In this document: positions 1,565 through 14,930 of the stretch, one piece after another | Position numbering within the stretch: position 1 is the first letter of the stretch | How the letters are laid out: the number at the start of each line of letters is the position of its first letter | Assembly (NCBI GenBank): GCA_001192655.1 | Contig: BBVC01000115.1 | Location: 1-15,367 of the forward strand | Direction: 5' to 3' | Length of the DNA: 15,367 bases | DNA from: Caedimonas varicaedens | GTDB taxonomy: Bacteria; Pseudomonadota; Alphaproteobacteria; Caedimonadales; Caedimonadaceae | Made by a program: the position numbers and the translations under genes | Notes under the pieces: model-generated | What the model was told of the DNA's origin: nothing | Seen by the model: the letters and a program-made list of their open reading frames with translations, nothing else | Databases searched by the model: none

Positions 1565-1651
1565 TGGTGCCCCCGGGGAGACTCGAACTCCCACATCCTT
1601 GCGAATAACAGATTTTGAGTCTGCCGCGTCTACCAATTCCGCCACAGGGGC
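1565..1651 (-). tRNA. tRNA-Leu (anticodon CAA), 87 nt including encoded CCA
   Basis: Reverse complement: GCCCCTGTGGCGGAATTGGTAGACGCGGCAGACTCAAAATCTGTTATTCGCAAGGATGTGGGAGTTCGAGTCTCCCCGGGGGCACCA. The 7-bp acceptor stem is GCCCCTG/CGGGGGC with one G-U pair. The T-arm is GGGAG-TTCGAGT-CTCCC, the anticodon loop is CT-CAA-AA, and the long variable arm is typical of class II Leu tRNAs. Confidence 0.93.
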
Positions 1652-1951
1652 AATGACGTGCTTTTCGATTAAACCATCATCCAGTCTTTTTCGCACGTGA
1701 CGTCCTCAACGAGATTCGAACCTGTGTTGCCGCCATAAAAGACCAGCCCTCCTTATAACATGTTGATCCGTGCTTGTCTATCGTAAAATGCTTGAGTTAT
1801 AAGGGGTTTAGACGACTTTACCTGTTTGAACTATTCTTTTATTGTTGTCTATCATCTTCTGCCAAACAAAGCCTCTCTGATGCAGGATAAGAGGAGTTTA
1901 AATTGATTCTGTGTTTTCTTAAAACTGAATCAGGTTGCGCATCTCTTCTGA

Positions 1952-2050
1952 GTGGAAGATTGAATATTGACCCGTATGGAAACTGTTACGGCTGCTTTCT
2001 TCCGAACCTGACCGAGTTCACAGGACATATGTCCAATATCAATCTTCCAA
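1952..2050 (-). ncRNA. ffs: Signal recognition particle RNA (4.5S RNA, small bacterial type)
   Basis: The minus strand contains GGTCAGGTTCGGAAGAAAGCAGCC (1990-2013). This matches the universally conserved domain IV of E. coli 4.5S RNA (GGUCAGGUCCGGAAGGAAGCAGCC): a GGAA tetraloop closed by TTC/GAA, flanked by the AGG/AGCA symmetric-loop residues. The 5' arm GGAAGATTGATATTGG pairs with the 3' arm TCAATATTCAATCTTCC to close a ~97-nt hairpin. Ends are good to +/-3 nt. Confidence 0.85.
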
Positions 2051-2515: not shown

Positions 2516-4063
2516 ATGAAAAATATACTATTAATAACTAATACGGTTTTATGTTTTTACTTTATAATATACTCAATAAGAAATTTGAGGGAATCTCCAA
2601 TCTTGAATTTAAGTATTCTTACATTTTCATTGATGTATTCAATAGGTTTTTTAATTATTATTTTTTATCCCAATGTATTCTTAGAAGATTATTTGCTACC
2701 AAATTATGATTTTCGTTATGCATTCCCTGTTCCTAAAAATAATGAACCTCTTTATGCGCTTACGATCGTACAGATTGGATTATTTTTAGGCATTGTCTTG
2801 TCAAAAAAAATTACATTTAGCTATTTTAATGTATGCAAAAATATTATCTATATTGATAAGAAATATTCCTTAGTTTTCGGCATTCTATTATTAATTATAT
2901 CTTACCTTTATTTTCTTTTGTTTTTTTATAATGATACTTCTTGGCCTTTGCTTTATTATCTAAAATCTCATTTAGATCCTGCAATTATATCTCATAATTG
3001 GAATATAATGCAAAATAATAAATCTTTTATTTTTTACATTTCAATAATGAGGCAATTTCTACAGATTGTTATGCCTCTTGCAGGCTTTTATCTGCTCATA
3101 TATTACTACCAATCAAAAAACTACTTTATTCTAATAATGATTATGTTACATTTCTTTATCTTCTTATTATTAATTATAGGTTCTCTAAAAAGCACGCCTA
3201 TTTTATTATTTTGCGTAGAATTAACTTTTTTTAGTATTATACAAAAACCTATAAATAAAAAAATGATTTTATCAGCAATTGCCATTGCTTTTATTGGCTA
3301 TTACAGCAATATCTCAATGAGACATTTTTATGTCTCCCCTCAAGTAAATACTACTTCAAAAACCGATTATTCTGAAAATAAAGATTATAGTCAATATAGG
3401 TTGTTTTCTCAATATTGTGCTGATTATTTTAAAAGCGGGAAAATTAAAATAGATTTTTCTAAAAAAGAACAAGAAAAATTGGAAGAACATACTAATAAAA
3501 TTAAACACCTCAATAAAAAGAATCCTTTTTTCTCTATTTTTATAGCAAGGCTTGTAGGAAGAATTTTGACAGGAGAAATGATGGATACTTTTATGATTGT
3601 TGGAAATAAAGAACTAACAGCTTATTATAAAAATAATGAACCATTATTAGGATATCTAAAAAAGATTCTAGGGTTCAATCAAATGACAATTTATCAGCAA
3701 TTCGCTAAAATTCTCTCAGGAGATTTAACGGCTGGTTCTATAACTATTTCTTTCTTTTTCGAACTTTTTTTATTATGTGGAAAATTTAGCGTTTTGATCA
3801 TCGCTTTATTTATTTTCTCTTTATCATATCTAGATAAACTTGTTTTTGGAAAAAATGAACATATTGAATTTGAAACTACTCAAAGAATTTTCATAGATCC
3901 TAGCTTTGCTTTTTTTGCAGTTCTAATTCCTATGATGGGATTAAAGGGTTTTATGACTTCATTTTTTACAGGTGGTTTCCTTACAGTACTAGCTTGGTTA
4001 ACATTTAAGTCTATTTTTTTATATTATCTTTTTCCTAAAAGAATTAACTCAGATATTTCATGA
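2516..4063 (+). CDS. Polytopic inner-membrane protein, about 10-11 TM segments with a large hydrophilic loop; possibly a Wzy-type oligosaccharide repeat-unit/O-antigen polymerase (functional guess)
   Basis: The 515-codon ORF stays open through extremely AT-rich DNA, where stops should be frequent. It has runs of hydrophobic 20-mers (VLCFYFIIYSI, LMYSIGFLIIIF, VFGILLLIISYLYFLLFF, FILIMIMLHFFIFLLLIIG, VLIIALFIFSL, FLTVLAWLTF). A lysine-rich soluble stretch spans about residues 265-400. Size, topology and very low GC relative to neighbours are typical of Wzy-like polymerases, but no diagnostic motif exists. Confidence 0.8.
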   Translation: MKNILLITNTVLCFYFIIYSIRNLRESPILNLSILTFSLMYSIGFLIIIFYPNVFLEDYLLPNYDFRYAFPVPKNNEPLYALTIVQIGLFLGIVLSKKITFSYFNVCKNIIYIDKKYSLVFGILLLIISYLYFLLFFYNDTSWPLLYYLKSHLDPAIISHNWNIMQNNKSFIFYISIMRQFLQIVMPLAGFYLLIYYYQSKNYFILIMIMLHFFIFLLLIIGSLKSTPILLFCVELTFFSIIQKPINKKMILSAIAIAFIGYYSNISMRHFYVSPQVNTTSKTDYSENKDYSQYRLFSQYCADYFKSGKIKIDFSKKEQEKLEEHTNKIKHLNKKNPFFSIFIARLVGRILTGEMMDTFMIVGNKELTAYYKNNEPLLGYLKKILGFNQMTIYQQFAKILSGDLTAGSITISFFFELFLLCGKFSVLIIALFIFSLSYLDKLVFGKNEHIEFETTQRIFIDPSFAFFAVLIPMMGLKGFMTSFFTGGFLTVLAWLTFKSIFLYYLFPKRINSDIS

Positions 4064-4107
4064 GGGTTTCGGGTGCCGTTAAAATTATTTTTGCGACGGA
4101 ATCAAAT

Positions 4108-4545
4108 TCATCCTGTGATTGTGGCTCGTTTTCCCCCAAAGACACGCTTTTGAATATTGTAAGTGAGATTGGCGGTGATTTTAATCGGCGCTCTGTCCAG
4201 ACCAATGGTGCGTATAAAGTGTCCCATGCGTTCTTTTTAGGGGGCAAAAATATGCTCTACATGGGGGCACGGATTTTAGATTCCTTGCCGTTGGCGCGGT
4301 GGGTGTTCAAGGGCATGGGCTTCTTCTTTAGTTTCTTGCGGTGAAGCTGAGAGCGAAATCCGTTCTCTGTAAGACCTTCTCTTTGACTTCGTTGCGGTAA
4401 GCCGTATCCTCTAAACAGAGCAAGACGTATTGTTTTTGTTCAAGAGAGATAGGCCAAGATCCTGCCGTCATAACGGCTGACGTCTTCGGCTTCTTACAAA
4501 CTTTCGATCGGAAGCTTACACAAATGTAAAAATATAACGCCAACC
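4108..4545 (-). mobile_element. IS5-family (IS5/IS1182-like DDE) transposase C-terminal remnant with several frameshifts
   Basis: Minus-strand frames read ...LEDTAYRNEVKEKVLQR / NGFRSQLHRKKLKKKPMPLNTHRANGKESKIRAP / HVEHIFAP / KERMGHFIRTIGLDRAPIKITANLTYNIQKRVF..., with the stop at 4108-4110. This matches the IS5-type tail pattern AD.AYRS...L...G..s.i.rK......L.....N...SK.R..VEH.F...K...g...iRtiGL.RA..ki.l.NL.YNi.R. Confidence 0.65.
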
Positions 4546-4549
4546 AGCC

Positions 4550-4562
4550 CTGTCACTATTAA
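4550..4562. repeat. Left terminal inverted repeat CTGTCACTATTAA
   Basis: Exact reverse complement of 5418-5430. It lies 6 nt outside the stop of the transposase-like ORF at 4568. Confidence 0.6.
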
Positions 4563-5417
4563 GTAGGTTACATTGAGCGTTTAAGCAGAGCAAGGTCAAA
4601 GGAAGCGAAAGAAGAAAGGTCTATTTTATCGAATCTTAGAGCAAGCTTTTTGTTTTTCTTGATTCTTCCAAAGAAGCGTTCAACATTTGAACGCGTTTGA
4701 TATCTTTCTTTGTCTTGTACGCTTAGGAAAACAGCCCCTTCTCTACGAGGGTAATCTTGTCTGACCCGTTTGAGAAAAGATTTCATGACTTCCTTGCCAC
4801 AACTCCCTTCTGTCAGGAGAACAGTGGTCTGAAAAGATAAGGAAGAGTCAGAGCCGCCTATAATATTCGTCCTGTATTGGCCAGAACGGTTTTTGTTCCC
4901 CCTTTTCCTTTGAATTGCCACGCATAATCATTCTTGTTGCTGGACGGGGTCTGTAAAAACCACACCTCTCCTTTCCGAGCTTCTTCCACAATGTCCAGAA
5001 TTTCCTGGACAAAATCTTCTTGAGCTTGAGTATCAGGAGCTTTACCGGGAATCAGTCGGGTCTTTTTGTAAGAACAACGGAGTTTTTTTAATCCAACGGC
5101 TCAGCCAGCTTTGTTCAATCAACACCCCAAATTCTTCTGCTAACCAGCCTTGTAAACAAAACAACGTAGAAATACAATTTCTTTGAACATGATCTCTTAT
5201 TCTTGTCAACATAAGGTGTTAACTTGGAAGGGCATCTGCCTTCATAATGGGTGGAACATAAACCTTTAAGACCTTGTTCAACAAAGAGTTTTGACCAATT
5301 TGTTAATGGGGCTTGTGACATCTGGAGAATAAAGCCAATCTCTTTTTGCTCATAGCCCCTCTATACGTTAAATCAAGCCAAAGTAAACAAAGTTAGTATA
5401 ATATAATTTTACTGTTG

Positions 5418-6586: not shown

Positions 6587-7167
6587 GAAAAATGATCTGC
6601 AAGAAATAATTGGAAAGCCTTTGCCCGATGACTCCAACGGTTTTTTTCATCGACAGTCATTTCGGCATAAGTGTGAGGGCTGCCAAGGGGTTTAAAAATA
6701 GGATCATAGCCGTGTCCATGACTACCCCGAGGAGGGAAAACAAGCTCTCCCTGGCATTGACCCTCATAAAATTTAAGATCGCCATTGGAAAGCGCCAGAG
6801 CAAGGACAGAAATACAGTAAGAGCGTGGGTTGGTCTGAATGTCTTTATTCTGGGCTAAAGCATCAAACATTTTTTCACGTCCACCATGACTGTCAATAAA
6901 TCCTTTTGAATCAACACCCGGAGCGCCATTCAAAACGTCAATACAGATGCCGGCATCATCAGCAAGACAGGGAAGTCCTGTTTTCTGCTGCCAGAAACGG
7001 GCTTTGATGGCTGCGTTTTCCCTGAAAGTGCATCCTGTTTCTGCAGGTTCTTCATCGCTGAAATCAGTCGCGCATTGAATTCGGACAGGAGACGGGACAA
7101 GCATTCTCAATTCCTCGATTTTTCCGCGATTGTGACTTGCCAGAAGAAGGGTTGAAAAAGAGATCAT
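6583..7167 (-). CDS. rdgB: RdgB/HAM1-family non-canonical purine NTP pyrophosphatase (dITP/XTP pyrophosphatase)
   Basis: LLASHNRGKIEELRML near the N-terminus, FRENAAIKA, LADDAGICIDVLNGAPGV, and GHGYDPIFKP followed by TYAEM...KN..SHRAKA. These are the canonical RdgB motifs, and 194 aa is the right length. Confidence 0.92.
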   Translation of the reverse strand: MISFSTLLLASHNRGKIEELRMLVPSPVRIQCATDFSDEEPAETGCTFRENAAIKARFWQQKTGLPCLADDAGICIDVLNGAPGVDSKGFIDSHGGREKMFDALAQNKDIQTNPRSYCISVLALALSNGDLKFYEGQCQGELVFPPRGSHGHGYDPIFKPLGSPHTYAEMTVDEKNRWSHRAKAFQLFLADHFS

Positions 7168-7172
7168 GAGCG

Positions 7173-7523
7173 TCAGTTCTCCAGGTATTTCTCTGAAGGT
7201 ATTACGATAGCTTGATAATGGTTGGCAATACTTTTAATCTTGAGGAAAGTTTTTTCTGCTCCCGTAAAAATAAGATGCCGAACGCCCATACGAAGTGCAC
7301 CCAGGGCATATCCTGCCATATCTCCAGCATTGTGCCAAAAAATAAGTTTTTTATGAGGAAATTCTTGTTGAAGCTCTTCTTTCCTGATCATCCAGTAAAC
7401 AGGACCGGCCGAAGCGAATAATTCCACAGGGCATACAAAGGTTATTTCTTCCCCATGGTTATGCGTGATGAATTTTCTTAAGGCATCTAGCGTATTGAGT
7501 TCAGTATCAAGAATATAAGGCAT
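7173..7523 (-). CDS. Hypothetical protein, 116 aa, no family recognised
   Basis: The ORF is packed into the operon: 5 nt before the rdgB start and 9 nt after the upstream lipoprotein stop. Composition resembles the flanking core genes. There is no signal peptide, TM segment or motif I can name. Confidence 0.7.
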   Translation of the reverse strand: MPYILDTELNTLDALRKFITHNHGEEITFVCPVELFASAGPVYWMIRKEELQQEFPHKKLIFWHNAGDMAGYALGALRMGVRHLIFTGAEKTFLKIKSIANHYQAIVIPSEKYLEN

Positions 7524-7751: not shown

Positions 7752-8327
7752 ATGAATCGCATTACCTGTTTCTTTTGTATGCTTTTTTTTATGTGGCTGA
7801 CAGTTTCTGTTCATGCTTTTGGTGGGCGCTATGAATCTTTGGCACCTCAGGACATGCCGGAATTTACATTTATGAATCCTGAAGGATTCCCGGTCATGCT
7901 GGATCAATATAAAGGAAAAGTCATCGTTCTTAATTTCTGGTCTATTACCTGCGGTCCCTGCATCGCAGAAATGCCGTCTCTGGATCAACTGGCAGGTTAT
8001 TATCCTGAAGAAGACCTGATGGTCATTACAGTGAATGTTGATCCCTTGCGCAAACCTGGAATCCAAAGTTTTTATGATGAAAATCGCTATCGATATCTGA
8101 AAATTTATCAGGATCCAACTCGTGCCTCTCAGCAAGTCCTCAAGTGGCAGGGATTACCAACGACTTTTATTATCAATAAGGAAGGAAAATTGATCGGGCG
8201 CGAGGTAGGATATGAAAAATGGGATAGCGCTGATGCTCTTGCCTTATTTGATCAATTAATTGAGGGAAAAAATCCGAAAATACAACCGTCCTTATTGCAA
8301 AAAATGAAAGGTTGGGTTGGTTTTTAA
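7752..8327 (+). CDS. TlpA/ResA/DsbE-like periplasmic thiol:disulfide oxidoreductase (thioredoxin fold, redoxin family)
   Basis: N-terminal signal/anchor (FFCMLFFMWLTVSVHAFG). KGKVIVLNFWSITCGPCIAEMPSL carries the W..CGPC active site. GLPTTFIINKEGKLIG is the cis-Pro loop region. GAGGAG lies upstream of the ATG. Confidence 0.88.
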   Translation: MNRITCFFCMLFFMWLTVSVHAFGGRYESLAPQDMPEFTFMNPEGFPVMLDQYKGKVIVLNFWSITCGPCIAEMPSLDQLAGYYPEEDLMVITVNVDPLRKPGIQSFYDENRYRYLKIYQDPTRASQQVLKWQGLPTTFIINKEGKLIGREVGYEKWDSADALALFDQLIEGKNPKIQPSLLQKMKGWVGF

Positions 8328-8377: not shown

Positions 8378-10288
8378 ATGCCTTTAAAGATTGAAACTTT
8401 TAACAATACAAATGGGGGGCAAAGCTTTTTTAAAGCCATAGGTCATCCTCTGGCGGTTGAGAAAGCGCAAAAGCTGCTTCAACAGATGCAGCACTGCCAA
8501 AGACTTGCCATTTATGATCCTGTTGGTTATTTAGGCACTTTTTATGAACTTTATGATCTTCGTTCCCTGAAAATTTCTGGTATTTATGTCCAGCGTTATG
8601 AAGATTTGGGTCGGGAAATTGCAGGACAGAAGGCCCATTTAATTACCGATTTATCTGACTGTGATGGATTGTTTGTTGTATCTTTTGACTCTGCTGCCAA
8701 ACTTGGACATATTCGTCATCTTATTCCCAAAGGCTGTCCTGTGTATTCACTGGATGACATGCGCATTCCAGATCACCTGCTGACCTATCCCCAACGTTAT
8801 CTGGATCCCTTGAATTTTGCGACCAACTTTGCTTTTTTTCGTGATGAGGGAAACCTTCATACGCGCCTTGTGACAGCTAACTATTGGTCAGGATATAGCG
8901 GTCGCCCGGCATCTCTATGGTGTTGCCTTTTTGATGCCTGTGGAAAGCGTCTTGCAGACTGGACTCAGGAATTGGGAAAAGCATACTCTACTGTGACAGT
9001 GGATAGTGAGGAAATTCGGAAGCGTTTCCAATTGCCGGCTTTTTGTGGTCAGCTTTTTGTGCATGTGGTTGGTGCGGCAGGACATGACATCGTAAAATAT
9101 GCGCTGGATACTTTGAGTGATGATGGTGAAACGCTCTCTTGCACCCATGATGCCAATGCGTGGCCTGCAGATTTTTATGCAGGATTGCCTGCTCCACGAG
9201 AAGATGAACAGGTGATTCTATGGGTGCAAAACAGTCATTCATGTCCTATTCCTGCGGGTTCTGTGGGGCTCAATGTTATGGGATCACCTGATATTGCTTG
9301 GTGGACTGAGGCTCTTCCAGGATTTGGAAGTCGGGCGCTGGATGTTAGTCGGCTTTTACCAAAGGTAAGATGGCCTCAACAATTGGAAATTCAGGCTGGT
9401 AAATATTTTGTCCGTCCCCGCTACGAGATTCTAAAAAAAGCATCAGGAAAGCGTCATATTGCACATGCCAATGTTGAACGTACGGATTTAAAACCCGATC
9501 CTCAGATTAAAAAGATTTCATCTCATTTTGGGAAGGGATTTATTTTACCAGCGCCTCTTTTGCCGACTCAAAAGTGGCGCACCATTATTTTACCTACGCC
9601 GATGGCAACCACGCAAACAAAACTTCCTCTTGCGCTTGAAATCTATGACCGTCATGGGAAAAAAATGCTGAGGGAAAGTTTTGGTGTGCTTTCAAGAACA
9701 GATTCCCAATCCATTGACGTGACGGATTTACTTCAGAAAAGCGATATTTCTCCAGACAATCATTTTGGACATGTTGAATTAATGTATGATTTTGATGCGG
9801 GAGAAGAGGCAGATGGTTGGCTGCATGGACTTTTCAGATATGAGCTTCGGGATGGCTCTCATACGGCTGAATCCAGTTTTGGAAGTCATATTTTTAATAC
9901 AGTCACTACTTATAAAAATCAGCCTCTATCTTACCGCGGAACACCCCCGGGACTCTCTACAAGATTGTTTTTAAGGCTGGGTTCCAAAGGGCTGGATACC
10001 CATTGTCATCTCATTTACCCTGCATCAAAAGCCTGGATTCCCCTCTCGGCAACGTCTCTTCAGCTGATGACAGCAGAAGGGGAAAACGTGGCAACAAAAC
10101 CTTTGCAGATTCGTTGTGGGGGATCTCATTATTGGCGCGCCAGCGAATTTTTTTCCCCTCAGGAACTTATGAAGGCAGGGGATGGGGCGTATATTGTTAT
10201 TCGGGATGAGACCTGTCGACTTTTTGGATATCATGGGTTGATTGATTCTTCAGACCGATTTTCTTTGGATCATATGTTTGGATTTTAA
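8378..10288 (+). CDS. Large cytoplasmic protein of unknown function (636 aa); no family recognised
   Basis: The 1.9-kb ORF is uninterrupted and has core-like composition. It lies 50 nt after the redoxin gene, and its stop is 9 nt before the trxB ATG. It has no signal peptide or TM segment, and no Walker, CxxC or HExxH motifs. See findings for its apparent internal modules. Confidence 0.85.
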   Translation: MPLKIETFNNTNGGQSFFKAIGHPLAVEKAQKLLQQMQHCQRLAIYDPVGYLGTFYELYDLRSLKISGIYVQRYEDLGREIAGQKAHLITDLSDCDGLFVVSFDSAAKLGHIRHLIPKGCPVYSLDDMRIPDHLLTYPQRYLDPLNFATNFAFFRDEGNLHTRLVTANYWSGYSGRPASLWCCLFDACGKRLADWTQELGKAYSTVTVDSEEIRKRFQLPAFCGQLFVHVVGAAGHDIVKYALDTLSDDGETLSCTHDANAWPADFYAGLPAPREDEQVILWVQNSHSCPIPAGSVGLNVMGSPDIAWWTEALPGFGSRALDVSRLLPKVRWPQQLEIQAGKYFVRPRYEILKKASGKRHIAHANVERTDLKPDPQIKKISSHFGKGFILPAPLLPTQKWRTIILPTPMATTQTKLPLALEIYDRHGKKMLRESFGVLSRTDSQSIDVTDLLQKSDISPDNHFGHVELMYDFDAGEEADGWLHGLFRYELRDGSHTAESSFGSHIFNTVTTYKNQPLSYRGTPPGLSTRLFLRLGSKGLDTHCHLIYPASKAWIPLSATSLQLMTAEGENVATKPLQIRCGGSHYWRASEFFSPQELMKAGDGAYIVIRDETCRLFGYHGLIDSSDRFSLDHMFGF

Positions 10289-10297
10289 GAGGGCTTT

Positions 10298-11242
10298 ATG
10301 AAAGAACATCGCACAAAACTCCTTATTATTGGGTCTGGTCCTGCGGGATATACTGCGGCGATTTATGCAGCGCGCGCAAACCTGAATCCTATTCAAGTCC
10401 TGGGAATACAGCCCGGGGGACAGTTGATGGTGACAACAGATGTTGAGAACTATCCCGGGTTTTCTGAAGTCATCCAGGGTCCCTGGCTCATGGAACAAAT
10501 GCTGGCTCAAGCCCAACATGTAGGCACCCAAACAGTTCAGGATATGATCTCAAGAGTGGATTTTTCAAAGCGTCCTTTTATATGTGAAGGAGAGGGCGGC
10601 GATCGCTATATTGCGGATACTGTGATTATTTGTACAGGTGCCCAGGCAAAGTGGTTGGGGCTGGAGAGTGAAGAAAAATATCGGGGCTATGGCGTATCTG
10701 GATGTGCTGTTTGTGATGGATTCTTTTTTAAAAATCAGGAAGTTGCCATTACAGGTGGCGGAAATACAGCGGTAGAGGAAGCTCTCTATCTGACCAATTT
10801 TGCGTCAAGGGTAACGTTAATTCATCGACGTGATCAGTTACGTGCAGAAAAAGTTTTGCAAGATCGATTGATGGAAAATCCTAAAATTCAGGTGATTTGG
10901 AATGCTGTTATTGAGGAAATTCTGGGTGAAGAAGAACCATCCAAAAATGTGACAGGGGTGCGATTGCGGGATACACAGACCAACAAGCTTTCTACTCTGG
11001 CTGTGGGTGGCGTCTTTATTGCTATTGGTCACAAGCCGATGACCGAGTTATTTGCAGGACAAATTGACCTTGATAAGCATGGTTATATTGCCTGTACTTC
11101 CGGCACGACACTCACAAATATCCCTGGAGTTTTTGCTGCGGGAGATGTTCAGGACAGTGTTTATCGTCAAGCTGTTACAGCGGCAGGGCAGGGATGTATG
11201 GCAGCGCTTGATGCCCAACGTTACCTTGCCGAACATCCCTGA
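10298..11242 (+). CDS. trxB: Thioredoxin-disulfide reductase
   Basis: LIIGSGPAGYTAAIYAARA (FAD GxGxxG), the redox-active CAVCDG, ITGGGNTAVEEALYL (NADPH site) and GVFAAGDV. The 314-aa length is right. Confidence 0.96.
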   Translation: MKEHRTKLLIIGSGPAGYTAAIYAARANLNPIQVLGIQPGGQLMVTTDVENYPGFSEVIQGPWLMEQMLAQAQHVGTQTVQDMISRVDFSKRPFICEGEGGDRYIADTVIICTGAQAKWLGLESEEKYRGYGVSGCAVCDGFFFKNQEVAITGGGNTAVEEALYLTNFASRVTLIHRRDQLRAEKVLQDRLMENPKIQVIWNAVIEEILGEEEPSKNVTGVRLRDTQTNKLSTLAVGGVFIAIGHKPMTELFAGQIDLDKHGYIACTSGTTLTNIPGVFAAGDVQDSVYRQAVTAAGQGCMAALDAQRYLAEHP

Positions 11243-11263: not shown

Positions 11264-13075
11264 GTGGCACCCCCTCTCATTACTCTTAAAGATGTTATGC
11301 TCACTTTTGGCGGTCGCTCGCTTTTTGAGAACCTTAATCTTTCTATTGGGGAAAAAGAGCGGGTATGCTTGGTGGGGCGCAATGGCTCTGGAAAATCAAC
11401 GCTCTTAAAAGTTTTAGCAGGAACTTGTGAGATGGACAGGGGCGAGCGGGTGATGAAGAGAGGAAGCCATATTGCCTATTTGCCTCAAGACCCGGAGATG
11501 CCTCCTGATACGACGATCGAACATTATGTGGCGGACGGATTACCACAAGATCAATACCATGATCGCTTTCGGGTTGCCATGGTTCTGGATGACATGCAAC
11601 TTGAGAGAGAGCGTCTTATAGGAACTCTTTCAGGGGGTGAAAAGAGGAAAACAGCTTTGGCGCGGGCTTTTGTCGGAGAGCCAGATTTGCTTCTCCTTGA
11701 TGAGCCGACTAACCACCTTGATTTGCCTGCCATTGAATGGTTAGAGCAGAAACTTAAAGATTTCAAGGGCGGATTTATTGCAATTTCTCATGATCGGATG
11801 TTTTTAACACATCTTTCCCAGTCAACTTTATGGCTTGATCGCGGGCAGATTCGTCGGCTTGATAAAGGATTCGAAGCCTTTGAAGAATGGGCAGACGGAC
11901 TATTAGCGCAGGAAGAAGTGGAAACGCGCAAACTTGACAAACTGATCTCTGAAGAAATCCGTTGGTCTCGTCAGGGAATTTCAGCGCGCCGCAAACGAAA
12001 TCAAGGAAGACTTCGCCGCCTTTCTTCTTTTCGCCAACATCGCTCAGAACAATTAAAACAACCGGGAATTGTGCGTGGGCTTGAAGCACAGACGGGTGAG
12101 ACTTCTTCTCGAGTCGTTATCGAAGCGCGTCACATTTCTAAATCTTTTGGTGAGCGGTTGGTTGTCGATGATTTTTCCATTCGGCTTTTGCGGGGAGATC
12201 GTGTGGGGATCATTGGTCCCAATGGGATTGGCAAGACAACACTGTTGAAACTATTAATGGGGGAAATGGCAATTGATTCGGGAAAGATTCGGTGGGGGCT
12301 TAATCTTACGCCCACATATCTGGATCAAAATCGCGTCATTTTAGACCCTGATCGTACATTATGGGAGACTTTGTGTGATACAGGGACAGATCAAATTATG
12401 GTACGGGGAGAGCCGCGGCATGTTGTAGGATATCTCAGGGATTTTCTTTTTGAAGAGCGCCAGGTGAGAAGTCCCGTCCGTGTTCTTTCGGGAGGAGAAA
12501 AAAATCGTCTTGTCCTAGCGAAAATGCTAGCAAGGGAATCCAATTTTCTGATTCTTGATGAACCCACCAACGATCTGGATATGGAAACTCTTGATCTTTT
12601 GCAAGAAGTTCTGGACGATTATGAGGGAACCATTTTACTGATCAGCCATGACCGTAGTTTTTTGGATCGTATCGTGACGTCCACCCTTGTTTTTGAAGAA
12701 AAAGGGAAAATTGTCGAGTATGCGGGCGGGTATAGCGACTATCGTCGTCAAAGTCCGTTATTATTCTTAAAAGAGCCAAAGAATCTTGTTCCTTCTTCTA
12801 AGACTGTTTCAAAGCACCCTAAAAAAATGTCTCAGCGATTAAGTTATCATCAACAAAGGCTTCTTGAGGTGCTACCTCAGGAAATTGCCATGCTTGAAGA
12901 AGAAAAGATACACATAGAAAAAACGCTTTCTGATCAAGAGTTGTTTGCGAAAAGTCCACAACAATTTGAAGGTTTGACGCGGCGACATGACCAGATTATC
13001 AATGAGTTGAATATTAAGGAAAATCAATGGCTTGAATTGGCAGAGCTCAAGGAAAATCTGAAAGATCCAGGATGA
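11264..13075 (+). CDS. uup: ABC-F family ATPase (Uup-like), two NBDs plus a C-terminal coiled-coil domain
   Basis: Walker A GRNGSGKST and GPNGIGKTT; ABC signatures LSGGEKRK and LSGGEKNR; Walker B LLLLDEPTNHLD and FLILDEPTNDLD. It has a charged linker, no TM domain, and a coiled-coil tail (LEVLPQEIAMLEEEKIHIEKTL...). GTG start at 11264, with AGGA 11 nt upstream. Confidence 0.88.
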   Translation: MAPPLITLKDVMLTFGGRSLFENLNLSIGEKERVCLVGRNGSGKSTLLKVLAGTCEMDRGERVMKRGSHIAYLPQDPEMPPDTTIEHYVADGLPQDQYHDRFRVAMVLDDMQLERERLIGTLSGGEKRKTALARAFVGEPDLLLLDEPTNHLDLPAIEWLEQKLKDFKGGFIAISHDRMFLTHLSQSTLWLDRGQIRRLDKGFEAFEEWADGLLAQEEVETRKLDKLISEEIRWSRQGISARRKRNQGRLRRLSSFRQHRSEQLKQPGIVRGLEAQTGETSSRVVIEARHISKSFGERLVVDDFSIRLLRGDRVGIIGPNGIGKTTLLKLLMGEMAIDSGKIRWGLNLTPTYLDQNRVILDPDRTLWETLCDTGTDQIMVRGEPRHVVGYLRDFLFEERQVRSPVRVLSGGEKNRLVLAKMLARESNFLILDEPTNDLDMETLDLLQEVLDDYEGTILLISHDRSFLDRIVTSTLVFEEKGKIVEYAGGYSDYRRQSPLLFLKEPKNLVPSSKTVSKHPKKMSQRLSYHQQRLLEVLPQEIAMLEEEKIHIEKTLSDQELFAKSPQQFEGLTRRHDQIINELNIKENQWLELAELKENLKDPG

Positions 13076-13162: not shown

Positions 13163-13837
13163 ATGTACGTTCAAACAGTTGATTTCAAGAGTCTTCATGC
13201 ATCAGAAAACTTTGTGGATTCCTTACGTTCAACGGGCTTTTCTGTTGTAAAGAATCATCCCGTTTCTCCTGATCTGATTTGTGATACGTTTCGTGAATGG
13301 GAAAAATTTTTCGCCGGAACGGAAAAACATGCCTACACTTTTGATCCTTGCGTTCAAGCAGGTTACTTCCCTTTTAAAAGTGAAAATGCAAAAGGCTACA
13401 CTGTCAAGGATTTGAAAGAGTTTTATCATTATTATACATGGCACGGATTGCCTGATGGCCTATCACAAAATACAGTGCATCTTTATGAAATACTGGAAGA
13501 AGTAGCCTGTACTTTTTTAGGCTGGATTGAAGAAAATACGCCTCAGGATTTGAGAGAAACTTTTTGTATGTCTTTGCCTGATATGGCGCGACATTCGCGG
13601 AACTCTCTTTTAAGAATTCTCCATTATCCTCCTTTAACAGAGAATGAAGAGGAAGGAGCAATTCGAGCGCATGCCCATGAGGACATCAATTTGATCACTG
13701 TTTTTCCTGCTGCCTCTACGTCAGGACTCCAGGTTCGTGATTTGGTGGGTGAATGGCATGATGTCCAATGTGAGCCGGGAGAAGTCGTTATTAATGCAGG
13801 AGACATGTTGCAAATGCTGACGCGGCGTTATTATTCT
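13163..13837 (+). pseudogene. 2OG-Fe(II) oxygenase (isopenicillin N synthase-like family), N-terminal 225 codons, interrupted by an IS200-type insertion
   Basis: Strong RBS AAGGGGGAG. It has a DIOX_N-like N-terminus, then LRILHYPP...IRAHAHEDINLITVF (the HxD iron ligands) and VINAGDMLQMLT. After ...RRYYS the reading frame runs into IS sequence (LPGWVKTLAFRRRLQ, then stop). Confidence 0.85.
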
Positions 13838-13859
13838 CTTCCTGGGTGGGTTAAAACCC

Positions 13860-13873
13860 TCGCCTTCAGGCGA
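13860..13873 (+). repeat. Left-end subterminal hairpin of the IS200-type element
   Basis: TCGCC-TTCA-GGCGA: 5-bp stem with a TTCA loop, about 20 nt inside the left junction. Confidence 0.5.
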
Positions 13874-13894
13874 AGACTTCAGTAAGCTAAGGTG

Positions 13895-14332
13895 ATGCAA
13901 GAATATCGCCGAAGCTCACACTGTCTGTTTGATCTCAAAGTCCATTTGGTATGGATTACCAAATATCGCAAACCTGTTTTGTATGGTTCCGAAGGGACGA
14001 GACTGAGAGATATTTTGCGCCAAGTTTGCACAGAGCTTGAAGTTGAGATTGTGTCAGGCAACATCAGACGAGATCATGTTCACCTTCTGCTTTCAGTACC
14101 CCCGCAAGTTTGCGTATCGAAACTGGTGCAAAAGCTGAAAGGTGTCAGCGCTCGTAAATTGCTTCAGGAAAGTGAGAGATTTAAGAAAGCCTTTTGGGGT
14201 CATCATCTGTGGGCGCGGGGTTACTTTGCTGTTTCTACAGGTCATGTGACTGAAGATATCATTGCCGAATACATTCAAAATCAGGATGAAGTCGAGCGTC
14301 TCCGTTCTGACAACTTCCAAGTCGGCTTCTAG
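13895..14332 (+). CDS. tnpA: IS200/IS605-family Y1 (HUH) transposase TnpA
   Basis: HCLFDLKVHLVWITKYRKPVL, HUH motif DHVHLLLS, KLKGVSARKL, and the catalytic-Tyr region HLWARGYFAVSTG. About 145 aa. I prefer ATG 13895, preceded by TAAGGTG; the track starts at GTG 13892. Confidence 0.93.
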   Translation: MQEYRRSSHCLFDLKVHLVWITKYRKPVLYGSEGTRLRDILRQVCTELEVEIVSGNIRRDHVHLLLSVPPQVCVSKLVQKLKGVSARKLLQESERFKKAFWGHHLWARGYFAVSTGHVTEDIIAEYIQNQDEVERLRSDNFQVGF

Positions 14333-14597: not shown

Positions 14598-14930
14598 ATG
14601 CCCCATATGACCTTTGTGACACCTCAGGGTGAACGAATAACAGTTGAGGTGCCAGTGGGTCTCTCTGTGCTCGAAATTGCTCACCAAAATAATATTGATC
14701 TGGAAGGTGCCTGTGAAGGTTCTCTTGCATGTTCTACGTGCCACGTTATTGTGGATTCTGAATGGTATGACACTCTTCCTGATGCTCAGGAAGAAGAAGA
14801 AGATATGCTTGATCTTGCGTTTGGACTAACGCACACATCAAGGTTGGGATGTCAGATAATTATGAAGGAAGAGTTGGATGGTTTAGTGGTCACCTTACCG
14901 CCTGCGACCCGTAATATGATGAGCGGCTAA
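14598..14930 (+). CDS. fdx: 2Fe-2S ferredoxin, adrenodoxin/mitochondrial (vertebrate) type
   Basis: [14 protein letters not shown] (Cx5CxxC) plus the fourth ligand in SRLGCQI. Also the acidic patch [14 protein letters not shown]. 110 aa. Confidence 0.93.

Follow-up and report, generated by a model that had tools for sequence, protein, structure and literature searches.

An uncatalogued protein family encoded beside ELM1-like genes: a putative lipopolysaccharide inner-core factor in Caedimonas varicaedens and other Proteobacteria

The stretch of DNA analysed here (the window) comprises 15,367 nucleotides of Caedimonas varicaedens contig BBVC01000115.1 and encodes, at positions 8378-10288 of the forward strand, a 636-amino acid (aa) protein that we call X. 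The X protein family is new: searches of the available libraries recovered no relative of it by sequence or by global fold, and no literature on it was found. Its likely pathway, the assembly of the inner core of lipopolysaccharide (LPS), is a known kind of system. Based on the genes that accompany X across the Proteobacteria, we give somewhat better than even chances to a role as a cytoplasmic-face factor for lipid A/inner-core LPS that works with a KdoT-type (ELM1-family) transferase. The thioredoxin reductase gene trxB, which follows X in the window, is best explained as a neighbour by inherited alphaproteobacterial synteny (greA-lrp / trxB-lsrB).

The X protein family

Gene X has an ATG start codon, which is backed by an N-terminus conserved among homologues (M-[AP]-L-x-I-E-T-F), and is the longest open reading frame (ORF) of the window. 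An earlier note, made by a model from the sequence alone, had named it the largest gene there, and ORF calling agrees. The same note took X to be the only long gene that could not be placed; this is incorrect, as a 515-aa ORF at 2516-4063 is also without a Pfam or NCBIfam family. No transmembrane segment or signal peptide was found in X (the maximum Kyte-Doolittle 19-mer score is 1.26), and a motif scan for CxxC, GxGxxG and P-loop sequences was negative, so that the note's account of a protein lacking export signals, CxxC and any known nucleotide motif is borne out. Its description of X as rich in Cys and His is only mildly true (1.9% Cys and 3.9% His).

Pfam and NCBIfam gave no match to X, and Pfam gave none to 32 aligned family members at E<=10. 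In sequence searches of the PDB, the best match to X as a single sequence had an E value of 0.04, while the family profile had no match at E<=10. The earlier judgement that X is of no recognisable family is therefore upheld. Nor was the family described in any paper recovered by literature searches, which extended to ELM1/PF06258, KdoT, the lsrB/trxB/lps region and the Azospirillum core.

The family is nonetheless large. Over 5,000 full-length homologues were detected in a search of a 5.8-billion-protein collection. The 120 listed are about 630-657 aa in length, align with 100% query coverage and 53-99% identity, and are called 'hypothetical' wherever they are named; among them are proteins from Azospirillum, Oceanibaculum, Rhodospirillaceae, 'Caedibacter sp. 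37-49' and metagenome-assembled genomes (MAGs) of Holosporales. Identity between orders is 53-61%, and once close relatives of the window are set aside the listed proteins are 54-61% identical to the X of the window. When one genome was scanned for each GTDB species, carriers of X were identified in at least 594 species genomes. These include Rhodospirillales sensu lato (Azospirillum, Nitrospirillum, Pelagibius, Tistlia, Inquilinus, Stellaceae and Kiloniellales), Puniceispirillum-like/SAR116-like and Holosporales-like endosymbiont lineages, and some beta/gammaproteobacteria (a complete Sulfuriferula genome, and MAGs of Methylophilaceae, Thiobacillus and Competibacteraceae). A HMMER profile search of 1.84 billion representatives returned the X family alone, in approximately 20 full-length clusters at 50% identity; the remaining matches are fragments or frame-shifted translations of high-GC DNA (for example P0172, P0174 and P0191). 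As neither distant relatives nor domain fusions were recovered by this search, the family is a tight one without detectable distant relatives.

Conservation within the family is high. In the 32-member alignment, 144 of the 636 positions are invariant, 10 of them His, and the invariant set is also rich in Asp, Arg, Asn, Tyr and Trp. The only invariant Cys is C613; three further Cys are kept in about 90% of members, and most Cys of the window protein are not conserved. Family signatures present in this protein are THDAN[AS]WP (as THDANAWP), [TS]SFG[AS]H[IVM]FN (as SSFGSHIFN) and the C-terminal DHMFGF.

An AlphaFold2 model of X built from the family alignment (predicted local distance difference test [pLDDT] 88.5, predicted template modelling score 0.89) comprises an N-terminal Rossmann-like domain followed by four beta-sandwich modules of the Ig/FnIII-like type, A to D. 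The features of the gene and its product are as follows.

8378..10288, forward strand: gene X, cytoplasmic 636-aa protein of an uncatalogued family (ORF call, homologues, AlphaFold2 model)
8378..8782, forward strand: Rossmann-like alpha/beta N-domain (aa 1-135), with a YDPxG loop after strand 1 and the conserved N-terminal peptide ETFxNxxGGxxFFKAxGHP
8783..9172, forward strand: beta module A (aa 136-265), with the LWCCLFDACGKRL hairpin, GHDIVKYALD and the end SCTHDANAWP
9173..9532, forward strand: beta module B (aa 266-385), with RPRYE and IAHANVER; 28% invariant columns
9533..9922, forward strand: beta module C (aa 386-515), with the LALEIYDRHGKKML hairpin, GHVELMYDF, DGWLHGLFRYE and the end SSFGSHIFN
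9896..9952, forward strand: conserved flexible loop (aa 507-525, NTVxTYKNxPxSYxGxPPGLST), from pLDDT below 50 and the alignment
9923..10285, forward strand: beta module D (aa 516-636), with the LQLMTAEGENVA hairpin, TCRLFGYHGL and the C-terminal FSLDHMFGF

The N-domain is the least conserved part of X, with 9% invariant columns. When it was modelled alone (pLDDT 82), its best PDB matches in Foldseek were the NADH-binding domains of Rex, which share a beta-alpha-beta arrangement with it (probability 0.99, E value 6e-3, template modelling [TM] score 0.43); other matches were to generic Rossmann folds such as ketol-acid reductoisomerase and methyltransferases (E>=6e-3). The alpha/beta fold extends to aa 135, in keeping with the earlier proposal that the first ~130 aa are Rossmann- or flavodoxin-like. 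The GxGxxG dinucleotide loop of Rex-type domains was sought in the N-domain and is absent, its place after strand 1 being taken by YDPxG. X was accordingly not assigned to the Rossmann enzymes of the pyridine-nucleotide/flavin adenine dinucleotide class, although the fold itself is Rossmann-like.

Modules A, C and D are predicted to follow a common order, in which two strands lead into a hairpin whose turn reads D/E-x-x-G; one more strand, a short helix and three strands come after it, the last ending in S-x-x-H-x-x-N/G. Module A has eight strands and two short helices, and 22% of its columns are invariant (including H236, D237, K240, H257 and D258); module C has 25% invariant columns (including H465, H483, H495 and H504) and module D has 31% (including C613, H619 and H632). 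Module B differs from these three in topology and has no profile similarity to them. The earlier note had proposed three loosely similar modules, each with a strand-Asp/Glu-x-Gly turn and a Ser/His end motif. Both motifs are seen in A, C and D, and the idea of three related modules is retained for these, with the corrections that there are four beta modules, that B is different and that BLAST self-comparison of X detects no internal repeats. Alignments by hhalign between A, C and D are weak and confined to the hairpin regions (P 0.003-0.04), with three pairwise registers that are mutually consistent; the similarity is accepted because of the agreement in topology and register, not on statistics.

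Only in the segment aa 507-525 does pLDDT fall under 50, although this is one of the best conserved stretches of X (N507, Y512, P516, S518, Y519, G521, P524 and G525 are invariant). Predicted flexibility and conservation together suggest a candidate functional lid or partner-binding loop.

Foldseek comparison of the whole model with PDB and BFVD found no global fold match, only generic tandem Ig/FnIII-like arrays. The best of these (the macroglobulin [MG] ring of complement C3, bacterial alpha-2-macroglobulin, RbmA and the accessory domains of GH2 enzymes) have E values down to 1e-6, but TM scores of 0.05-0.17 and a root-mean-square deviation around 20 Å show that the arrangement of modules is not common to them and X. 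Membership of the alpha-2-macroglobulin/C3 (MG-domain) class was rejected for X, which has TM scores of 0.05-0.13 to this class despite the E value of 1e-6, lacks the CGEQ thioester and a signal peptide, and has a Rossmann-like N-domain. Glycosyltransferases of the GT-A/GT-B type were likewise rejected, as X has no such match in Pfam or in the fold searches.

Gene neighbourhood of X

To describe the context of X, relatives of neighbouring genes were located by seed-based tblastn in 87 X loci, ordered by the similarity of their X proteins. Of the 87, 64 have an ELM1-like gene (PF06258). In the 84 loci whose upstream flank is long enough, this gene shares the strand of X and lies within 1.5 kb upstream of it in 50. 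A gene for a prolyl-4-hydroxylase (P4H)-like 2-oxoglutarate (2OG)-Fe(II) oxygenase (PF13640) is found in 39 of the 87. Among the 77 loci whose downstream flank is long enough, 45 have trxB no more than 700 bp downstream of X. Alphaproteobacterial loci typically read greA, lrp on the reverse strand, then Elm1-(Oxy)-X-trxB-lysR; those of beta/gammaproteobacteria hold an (Oxy)-Elm1-X cassette without trxB.

The order of these genes is permuted yet the trio is kept: Elm1-Oxy-X in Alphaproteobacteria, Oxy-Elm1-X in Betaproteobacteria and Oxy-X-Elm1 in one further locus (L049). Persistence of a neighbourhood despite rearrangement is a classical indication that its genes are functionally coupled. The genes can also be very close to one another: in Sulfuriferula (L083), the Elm1 ORF ends at position 7000 and X starts at 7001. 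The two deepest branches of the X family have no trxB beside X and keep the ELM1-like gene. One member, 38% identical (L088), has Elm1-X with a 10-nt gap; in the other (42% identical), the ELM1-like gene is 3 kb from X. Median identity is 64% for X, 52% for its ELM1 partner and 57% for its oxygenase partner, indicating that X is the slower evolving.

Genes for lipid A and inner-core synthesis recur around this cassette. waaA is found beside X as waaA-Elm1-X (L075) and waaA-X (L065). Glycosyltransferase genes of families GT4 and GT9 are arranged as Elm1-X-GT4-GT9 with overlapping ORFs (L028 and L052), as X-GT4-GT9 (L022) and, in Azospirillum thermophilum (L001), as GT4-X. Stellaceae-type (L046-type) loci have Elm1-PAP2-ArnT-like-X-trxB, and L080 has ArnT-like-X. 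In the deep-branching locus L088, LpxL-like, GT2, WaaL-like (Wzy_C) and GT4 genes precede Elm1-X. With the seed families set aside, no Pfam family recurs more often than GT9 and GT4 among de-replicated co-directional neighbours of X. By context, the X family belongs to LPS lipid A/inner-core clusters in several independent lineages.

The only characterised bacterial member of the ELM1 family is KdoT (PMC12856342). In Acinetobacter baumannii, this ELM1-like enzyme adds a third 3-deoxy-D-manno-oct-2-ulosonic acid (Kdo) residue to Kdo2-lipid A, and its homologue from Rickettsia can make up for its loss (PMC12856342, PMC10936431). X resembles the KdoT/GnaT pair of the A. baumannii lipooligosaccharide inner core in that, in most lineages, its gene is the immediate neighbour of an ELM1-family gene, and the two often form part of waaA/GT4/GT9 core operons. 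GnaT is the gene that works with KdoT in Acinetobacter (PMC12856342), and by position X matches that role; X is not homologous to either protein.

The oxygenase recalls a second inner-core system, that of KdoO, a Fe(II)/2OG-dependent Kdo 3-hydroxylase that modifies inner-core Kdo in the cytoplasm. As in KdoO systems, a 2OG-Fe(II) oxygenase is co-encoded in X loci with Kdo-transferase-type genes, and with X, which by analogy suggests oxidative tailoring of the inner core on the cytoplasmic face. The analogy extends to the locus rather than to the proteins: the oxygenase beside X belongs to PF13640 (P4H-like) and not to the KdoO family, and X itself has no oxygenase signature.

A P4H-like oxygenase next to an ELM1-like GT-B enzyme would also fit a pathway in which the two hydroxylate and glycosylate a protein, with X as the target, an adaptor or a further enzyme; hydroxyproline glycosylation of Skp1 provides a model. 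The presence of the PF13640 gene in 39 of the 87 loci is in line with such a scheme, as are the exposed, very conserved flexible loop of X (aa 507-525), which is rich in Pro, Tyr and Ser, and two weak matches far under their curated cut-offs, one of the oxygenase to the NCBIfam peptide-modifying YhhC model and one of a GNAT protein encoded beside X in a single locus to a model of acetyltransferases of ribosomally synthesized and post-translationally modified peptides (RiPPs). We consider protein modification improbable: about half of the Elm1-X loci are without the oxygenase, the recurrent neighbours are waaA, GT9, GT4, PAP2, ArnT-like, LpxL-like and WaaL-like genes rather than protein-targeting machinery, and Kdo2-lipid A is what the sole ELM1-family enzyme characterised in bacteria acts on (PMC12856342).

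In the window, X stands in a same-strand run with the following genes.

7752..8327, forward strand: TlpA/ResA-like periplasmic redoxin, upstream of X and co-directional, with a CGPC motif and a hydrophobic N-terminal anchor (Pfam Redoxin 3.8e-18; NCBIfam TlpA 1.5e-28, under its curated cut-off)
10298..11242, forward strand: trxB, thioredoxin reductase, downstream of X (TIGR01292, 409 bits, above cut-off)
11264-13075, forward strand: Uup, an ABC-F protein, after trxB

Coordinates and profile matches agree with this run as it had first been read from the sequence. Nine nucleotides separate the X stop from the trxB ATG, a Shine-Dalgarno-like AGAGGG straddles the stop codon, and a simple scan found no convincing terminator between redoxin, X, trxB and uup. 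The short gaps and lack of a terminator make co-transcription of the run plausible, as the earlier note had suggested, and X is probably co-transcribed with the redoxin gene and trxB in this organism.

This arrangement had led the earlier note to a tentative functional link between X and thiol redox chemistry. On such a reading, X would act alongside TrxB and the TlpA-like redoxin, whether as partner, as substrate or as regulator of the thioredoxin system. The spacing of X and trxB, the frequency of trxB downstream of X and the invariance of C613, with three more Cys conserved in about 90% of members, are consistent with this idea. So is the persistence of the redoxin-X-trxB order through a whole clade, with gaps of about 10-85 nt, even though its X proteins are as low as 56-61% identical to that of the window. 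That clade, composed of low-GC lineages, is the only one in the X family to have this order, which is therefore kept in related genomes but not elsewhere. Homologues in part of the family are never beside trxB or a redoxin gene: neither the beta/gammaproteobacterial loci nor the two deepest branches have trxB next to X, whereas they do have the ELM1-like gene, and this weakens the thiol-redox interpretation. X has no CxxC, thioredoxin-fold or flavoprotein signature, and most of its Cys are not conserved. The redoxin has an export/anchor signal and X has none, which would place the two in different compartments. A link to thiol redox consequently appears quite unlikely. Thioredoxin-fold oxidoreductases were rejected as a class for X, which lacks a C..C pair and has no thioredoxin-like match in Pfam or NCBIfam, C613 being its only invariant Cys.

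The position of trxB has another explanation. Part of the gene order of Sinorhizobium relative to trxB is presumed here from gene numbering. In Alphaproteobacteria, trxB followed by the gene of the LysR regulator VtlR/LsrB is a conserved arrangement (PMC7486931), and in Sinorhizobium greA-lpsB-lpsCDE forms an LPS-core region (PMC3788101). The Sinorhizobium locus greA-lpsB-lpsCDE(-lrp3), near trxB-lsrB, has the same surroundings as X, with greA and lrp on one side and trxB and a LysR-type gene on the other (PMC3788101, PMC7486931). The slot between them differs in content: it holds the GT4-type genes lpsB/C/D/E in Sinorhizobium, whereas in Rhodospirillales it holds the ELM1-like gene, the 2OG oxygenase gene and X. 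Because the trxB-lsrB pair near lrp/greA is conserved in Alphaproteobacteria regardless of X, the adjacency of X and trxB is taken to be an inherited position and not a shared function.

Two further observations concern the neighbourhood. An ORF of ~219 aa without a Pfam or NCBIfam family recurs in Azospirillum-type loci (L001 5350-6009, L035, L041, L020 and L073), either between the ELM1-like gene and the oxygenase gene or directly upstream of X, and could be one more, uncharacterised, component of the cassette. In loci that depart from the main alphaproteobacterial layout, the gene after X varies, encoding a hemerythrin-domain protein in Sulfuriferula (L083 8842-9630), an IRK_C-domain protein in L029/L039 (8917-9936), the GNAT acetyltransferase with the weak RiPP N-acetyltransferase match in L006 (9922-10422) and a class I methyltransferase in L089 (9987-10736).

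Proposed role of X

In the reading that we favour, X is soluble and acts on the cytoplasmic face with, or right after, an ELM1-family glycosyltransferase at the inner core of LPS, and a small 2OG-Fe(II) oxygenase would join them in many lineages. Binding of the Kdo/lipid A-core acceptor would fall to the beta modules, which hold the conserved flexible loop and the majority of the invariant His, Asp, Arg, Tyr and Trp residues; these modules may also form an active site that is possibly metal-dependent; the less conserved Rossmann-like N-domain may bind a nucleotide-type co-substrate. The Elm1-(Oxy)-X cassette would fill the alphaproteobacterial LPS-core slot between lrp and trxB. The redoxin-X-trxB neighbourhood of the window would then be a lineage-specific remnant of a greA-lrp / trxB-lsrB locus with an ELM1-(oxygenase)-X insertion.

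X is most likely an enzyme rather than an adaptor, because of its invariant polar residues, its slower change relative to its partners and its retention in Holosporales-like endosymbionts. The alternative is a non-catalytic scaffold: a beta-sandwich carbohydrate-binding adaptor that positions or stabilises the ELM1-like transferase or a core-assembly complex at the inner membrane. Cytoplasmic beta-sandwich carbohydrate-binding domains do occur in LPS pathways, such as the C-terminal domain of Wzt, and X combines four Ig/FnIII-like modules, with only generic matches to tandem arrays, with tight coupling to the ELM1-like gene (abutting ORFs included) and no recognisable catalytic motif. We nevertheless regard a scaffold as rather unlikely. 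The 144 invariant positions, with their 10 His and many Asp, Arg, Asn, Tyr and Trp, at 55-60% identity across classes, are enzyme-like, and in the window's clade X persists without an adjacent ELM1-like gene.

A more specific version of the inner-core reading, possible but to our minds doubtful, is that X represents a new class of cytoplasmic inner-core LPS enzyme of neither GT-A nor GT-B type, built from a Rossmann-like domain and four beta-sandwich modules with a conserved site rich in His. Such an enzyme would modify the Kdo region, or transfer a group onto it, by a reaction not yet described, as an obligate partner of KdoT-type ELM1 transferases across Rhodospirillales, Holosporales-like endosymbionts and some beta/gammaproteobacteria.

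Several points weigh against an inner-core role. The functional case for X is wholly one of guilt by association, and motif, Pfam/NCBIfam and Foldseek searches provided no catalytic motif, ligand site or structural homologue. The ELM1-like proteins encoded next to X are presumed to be KdoT-like in activity because of the family they belong to. The oxygenase is P4H-like and not KdoO-like, and a hydroxylase paired with a glycosyltransferase could equally suit protein modification. X is conserved beyond the usual LPS-core glycosyltransferases, and could have a different, more central role.

The remaining objections concern individual loci. Within the window's own clade, no ELM1-like gene is found within about 7 kb of X; in the window itself, an ELM1-like gene and a PF13640 oxygenase gene were sought and neither was found. 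Nor does the window locus have lipid A/core cluster genes within its 15 kb. In a 70%-identical relative of the window organism, which keeps the gene order of the window, msbA-DUF374-waaA-lpxK-lpxL lies 4-10 kb downstream of X, and the window lineage therefore appears to make LPS. Five loci of the Azospirillum lipoferum/oryzae group (L017, L019, L023, L033 and L036) keep X-trxB, but the 7 kb upstream of X contain neither an ELM1-like gene nor one of PF13640. Their large upstream ORFs (for example 3391-5415 and 5199-6443 in L017) are without a Pfam family. In this group, either the cassette is split or X acts without an adjacent partner.

Remaining features of the window and significance of the X family

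Two segments of the window appear to be insertions, and their features are listed here.

1565-1651, reverse strand: tRNA-Leu(CAA), which with the SRP RNA lies just upstream of the low-GC ORF
1951-2048, reverse strand: bacterial small signal recognition particle (SRP) RNA (Rfam RF00169, 63.5 bits)
13163-13885, forward strand: 240-aa 2OG-Fe(II) oxygenase (DIOX_N and 2OG-FeII_Oxy), the C-terminal part of which looks short
13892-14332, forward strand: IS200/IS605 transposase, 7 nt after the 240-aa oxygenase gene

The low-GC ORF is the 515-aa ORF already mentioned (2516-4063, forward strand). It has a GC content of about 25% against a background of about 42%, and no Pfam or NCBIfam match even at E<=1. 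By eye it encodes a polytopic membrane protein with many hydrophobic segments, which resembles Wzy-type O-antigen polymerases in general appearance. A 94-aa ORF without a family (4060-4344, forward strand) overlaps its end. A tRNA gene beside a compositionally deviant segment is a typical site of island insertion, and the region 2516-4344 looks like a horizontally acquired island.

In the 70%-identical relative, the ferredoxin gene (14598-14930 in the window) directly follows uup; the oxygenase and IS200 pair that separates the two in the window therefore looks like a lineage-specific insertion. This oxygenase was rejected as the PF13640 partner of X, its family being another one (DIOX_N/2OG-FeII_Oxy). 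A 116-aa ORF without a family (7173-7523, reverse strand) separates rdgB from the redoxin gene, and the same position in the relative's contig is occupied by a 132-aa ORF without a Pfam match.

The X family is thus a very conserved one, with over 5,000 sequences in at least 594 species, that lies outside Pfam and NCBIfam and has neither a solved structure nor a recognisably similar one. Its history beside trxB is a reminder that adjacency to this gene in Alphaproteobacteria can reflect inherited synteny and not common function. KdoT-type genes were recognised as those of Kdo transferases only in 2024-2025, and the tight coupling of X to ELM1/KdoT genes provides a concrete, testable hypothesis for an unknown step of the LPS inner core. 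Carriers of X span plant-associated Azospirillum, marine Rhodospirillales and intracellular Holosporales-like symbionts. Since inner-core chemistry governs both the outer-membrane barrier and recognition by the host, a new enzyme class acting there would, if confirmed, matter to LPS biochemistry and to symbiosis research.

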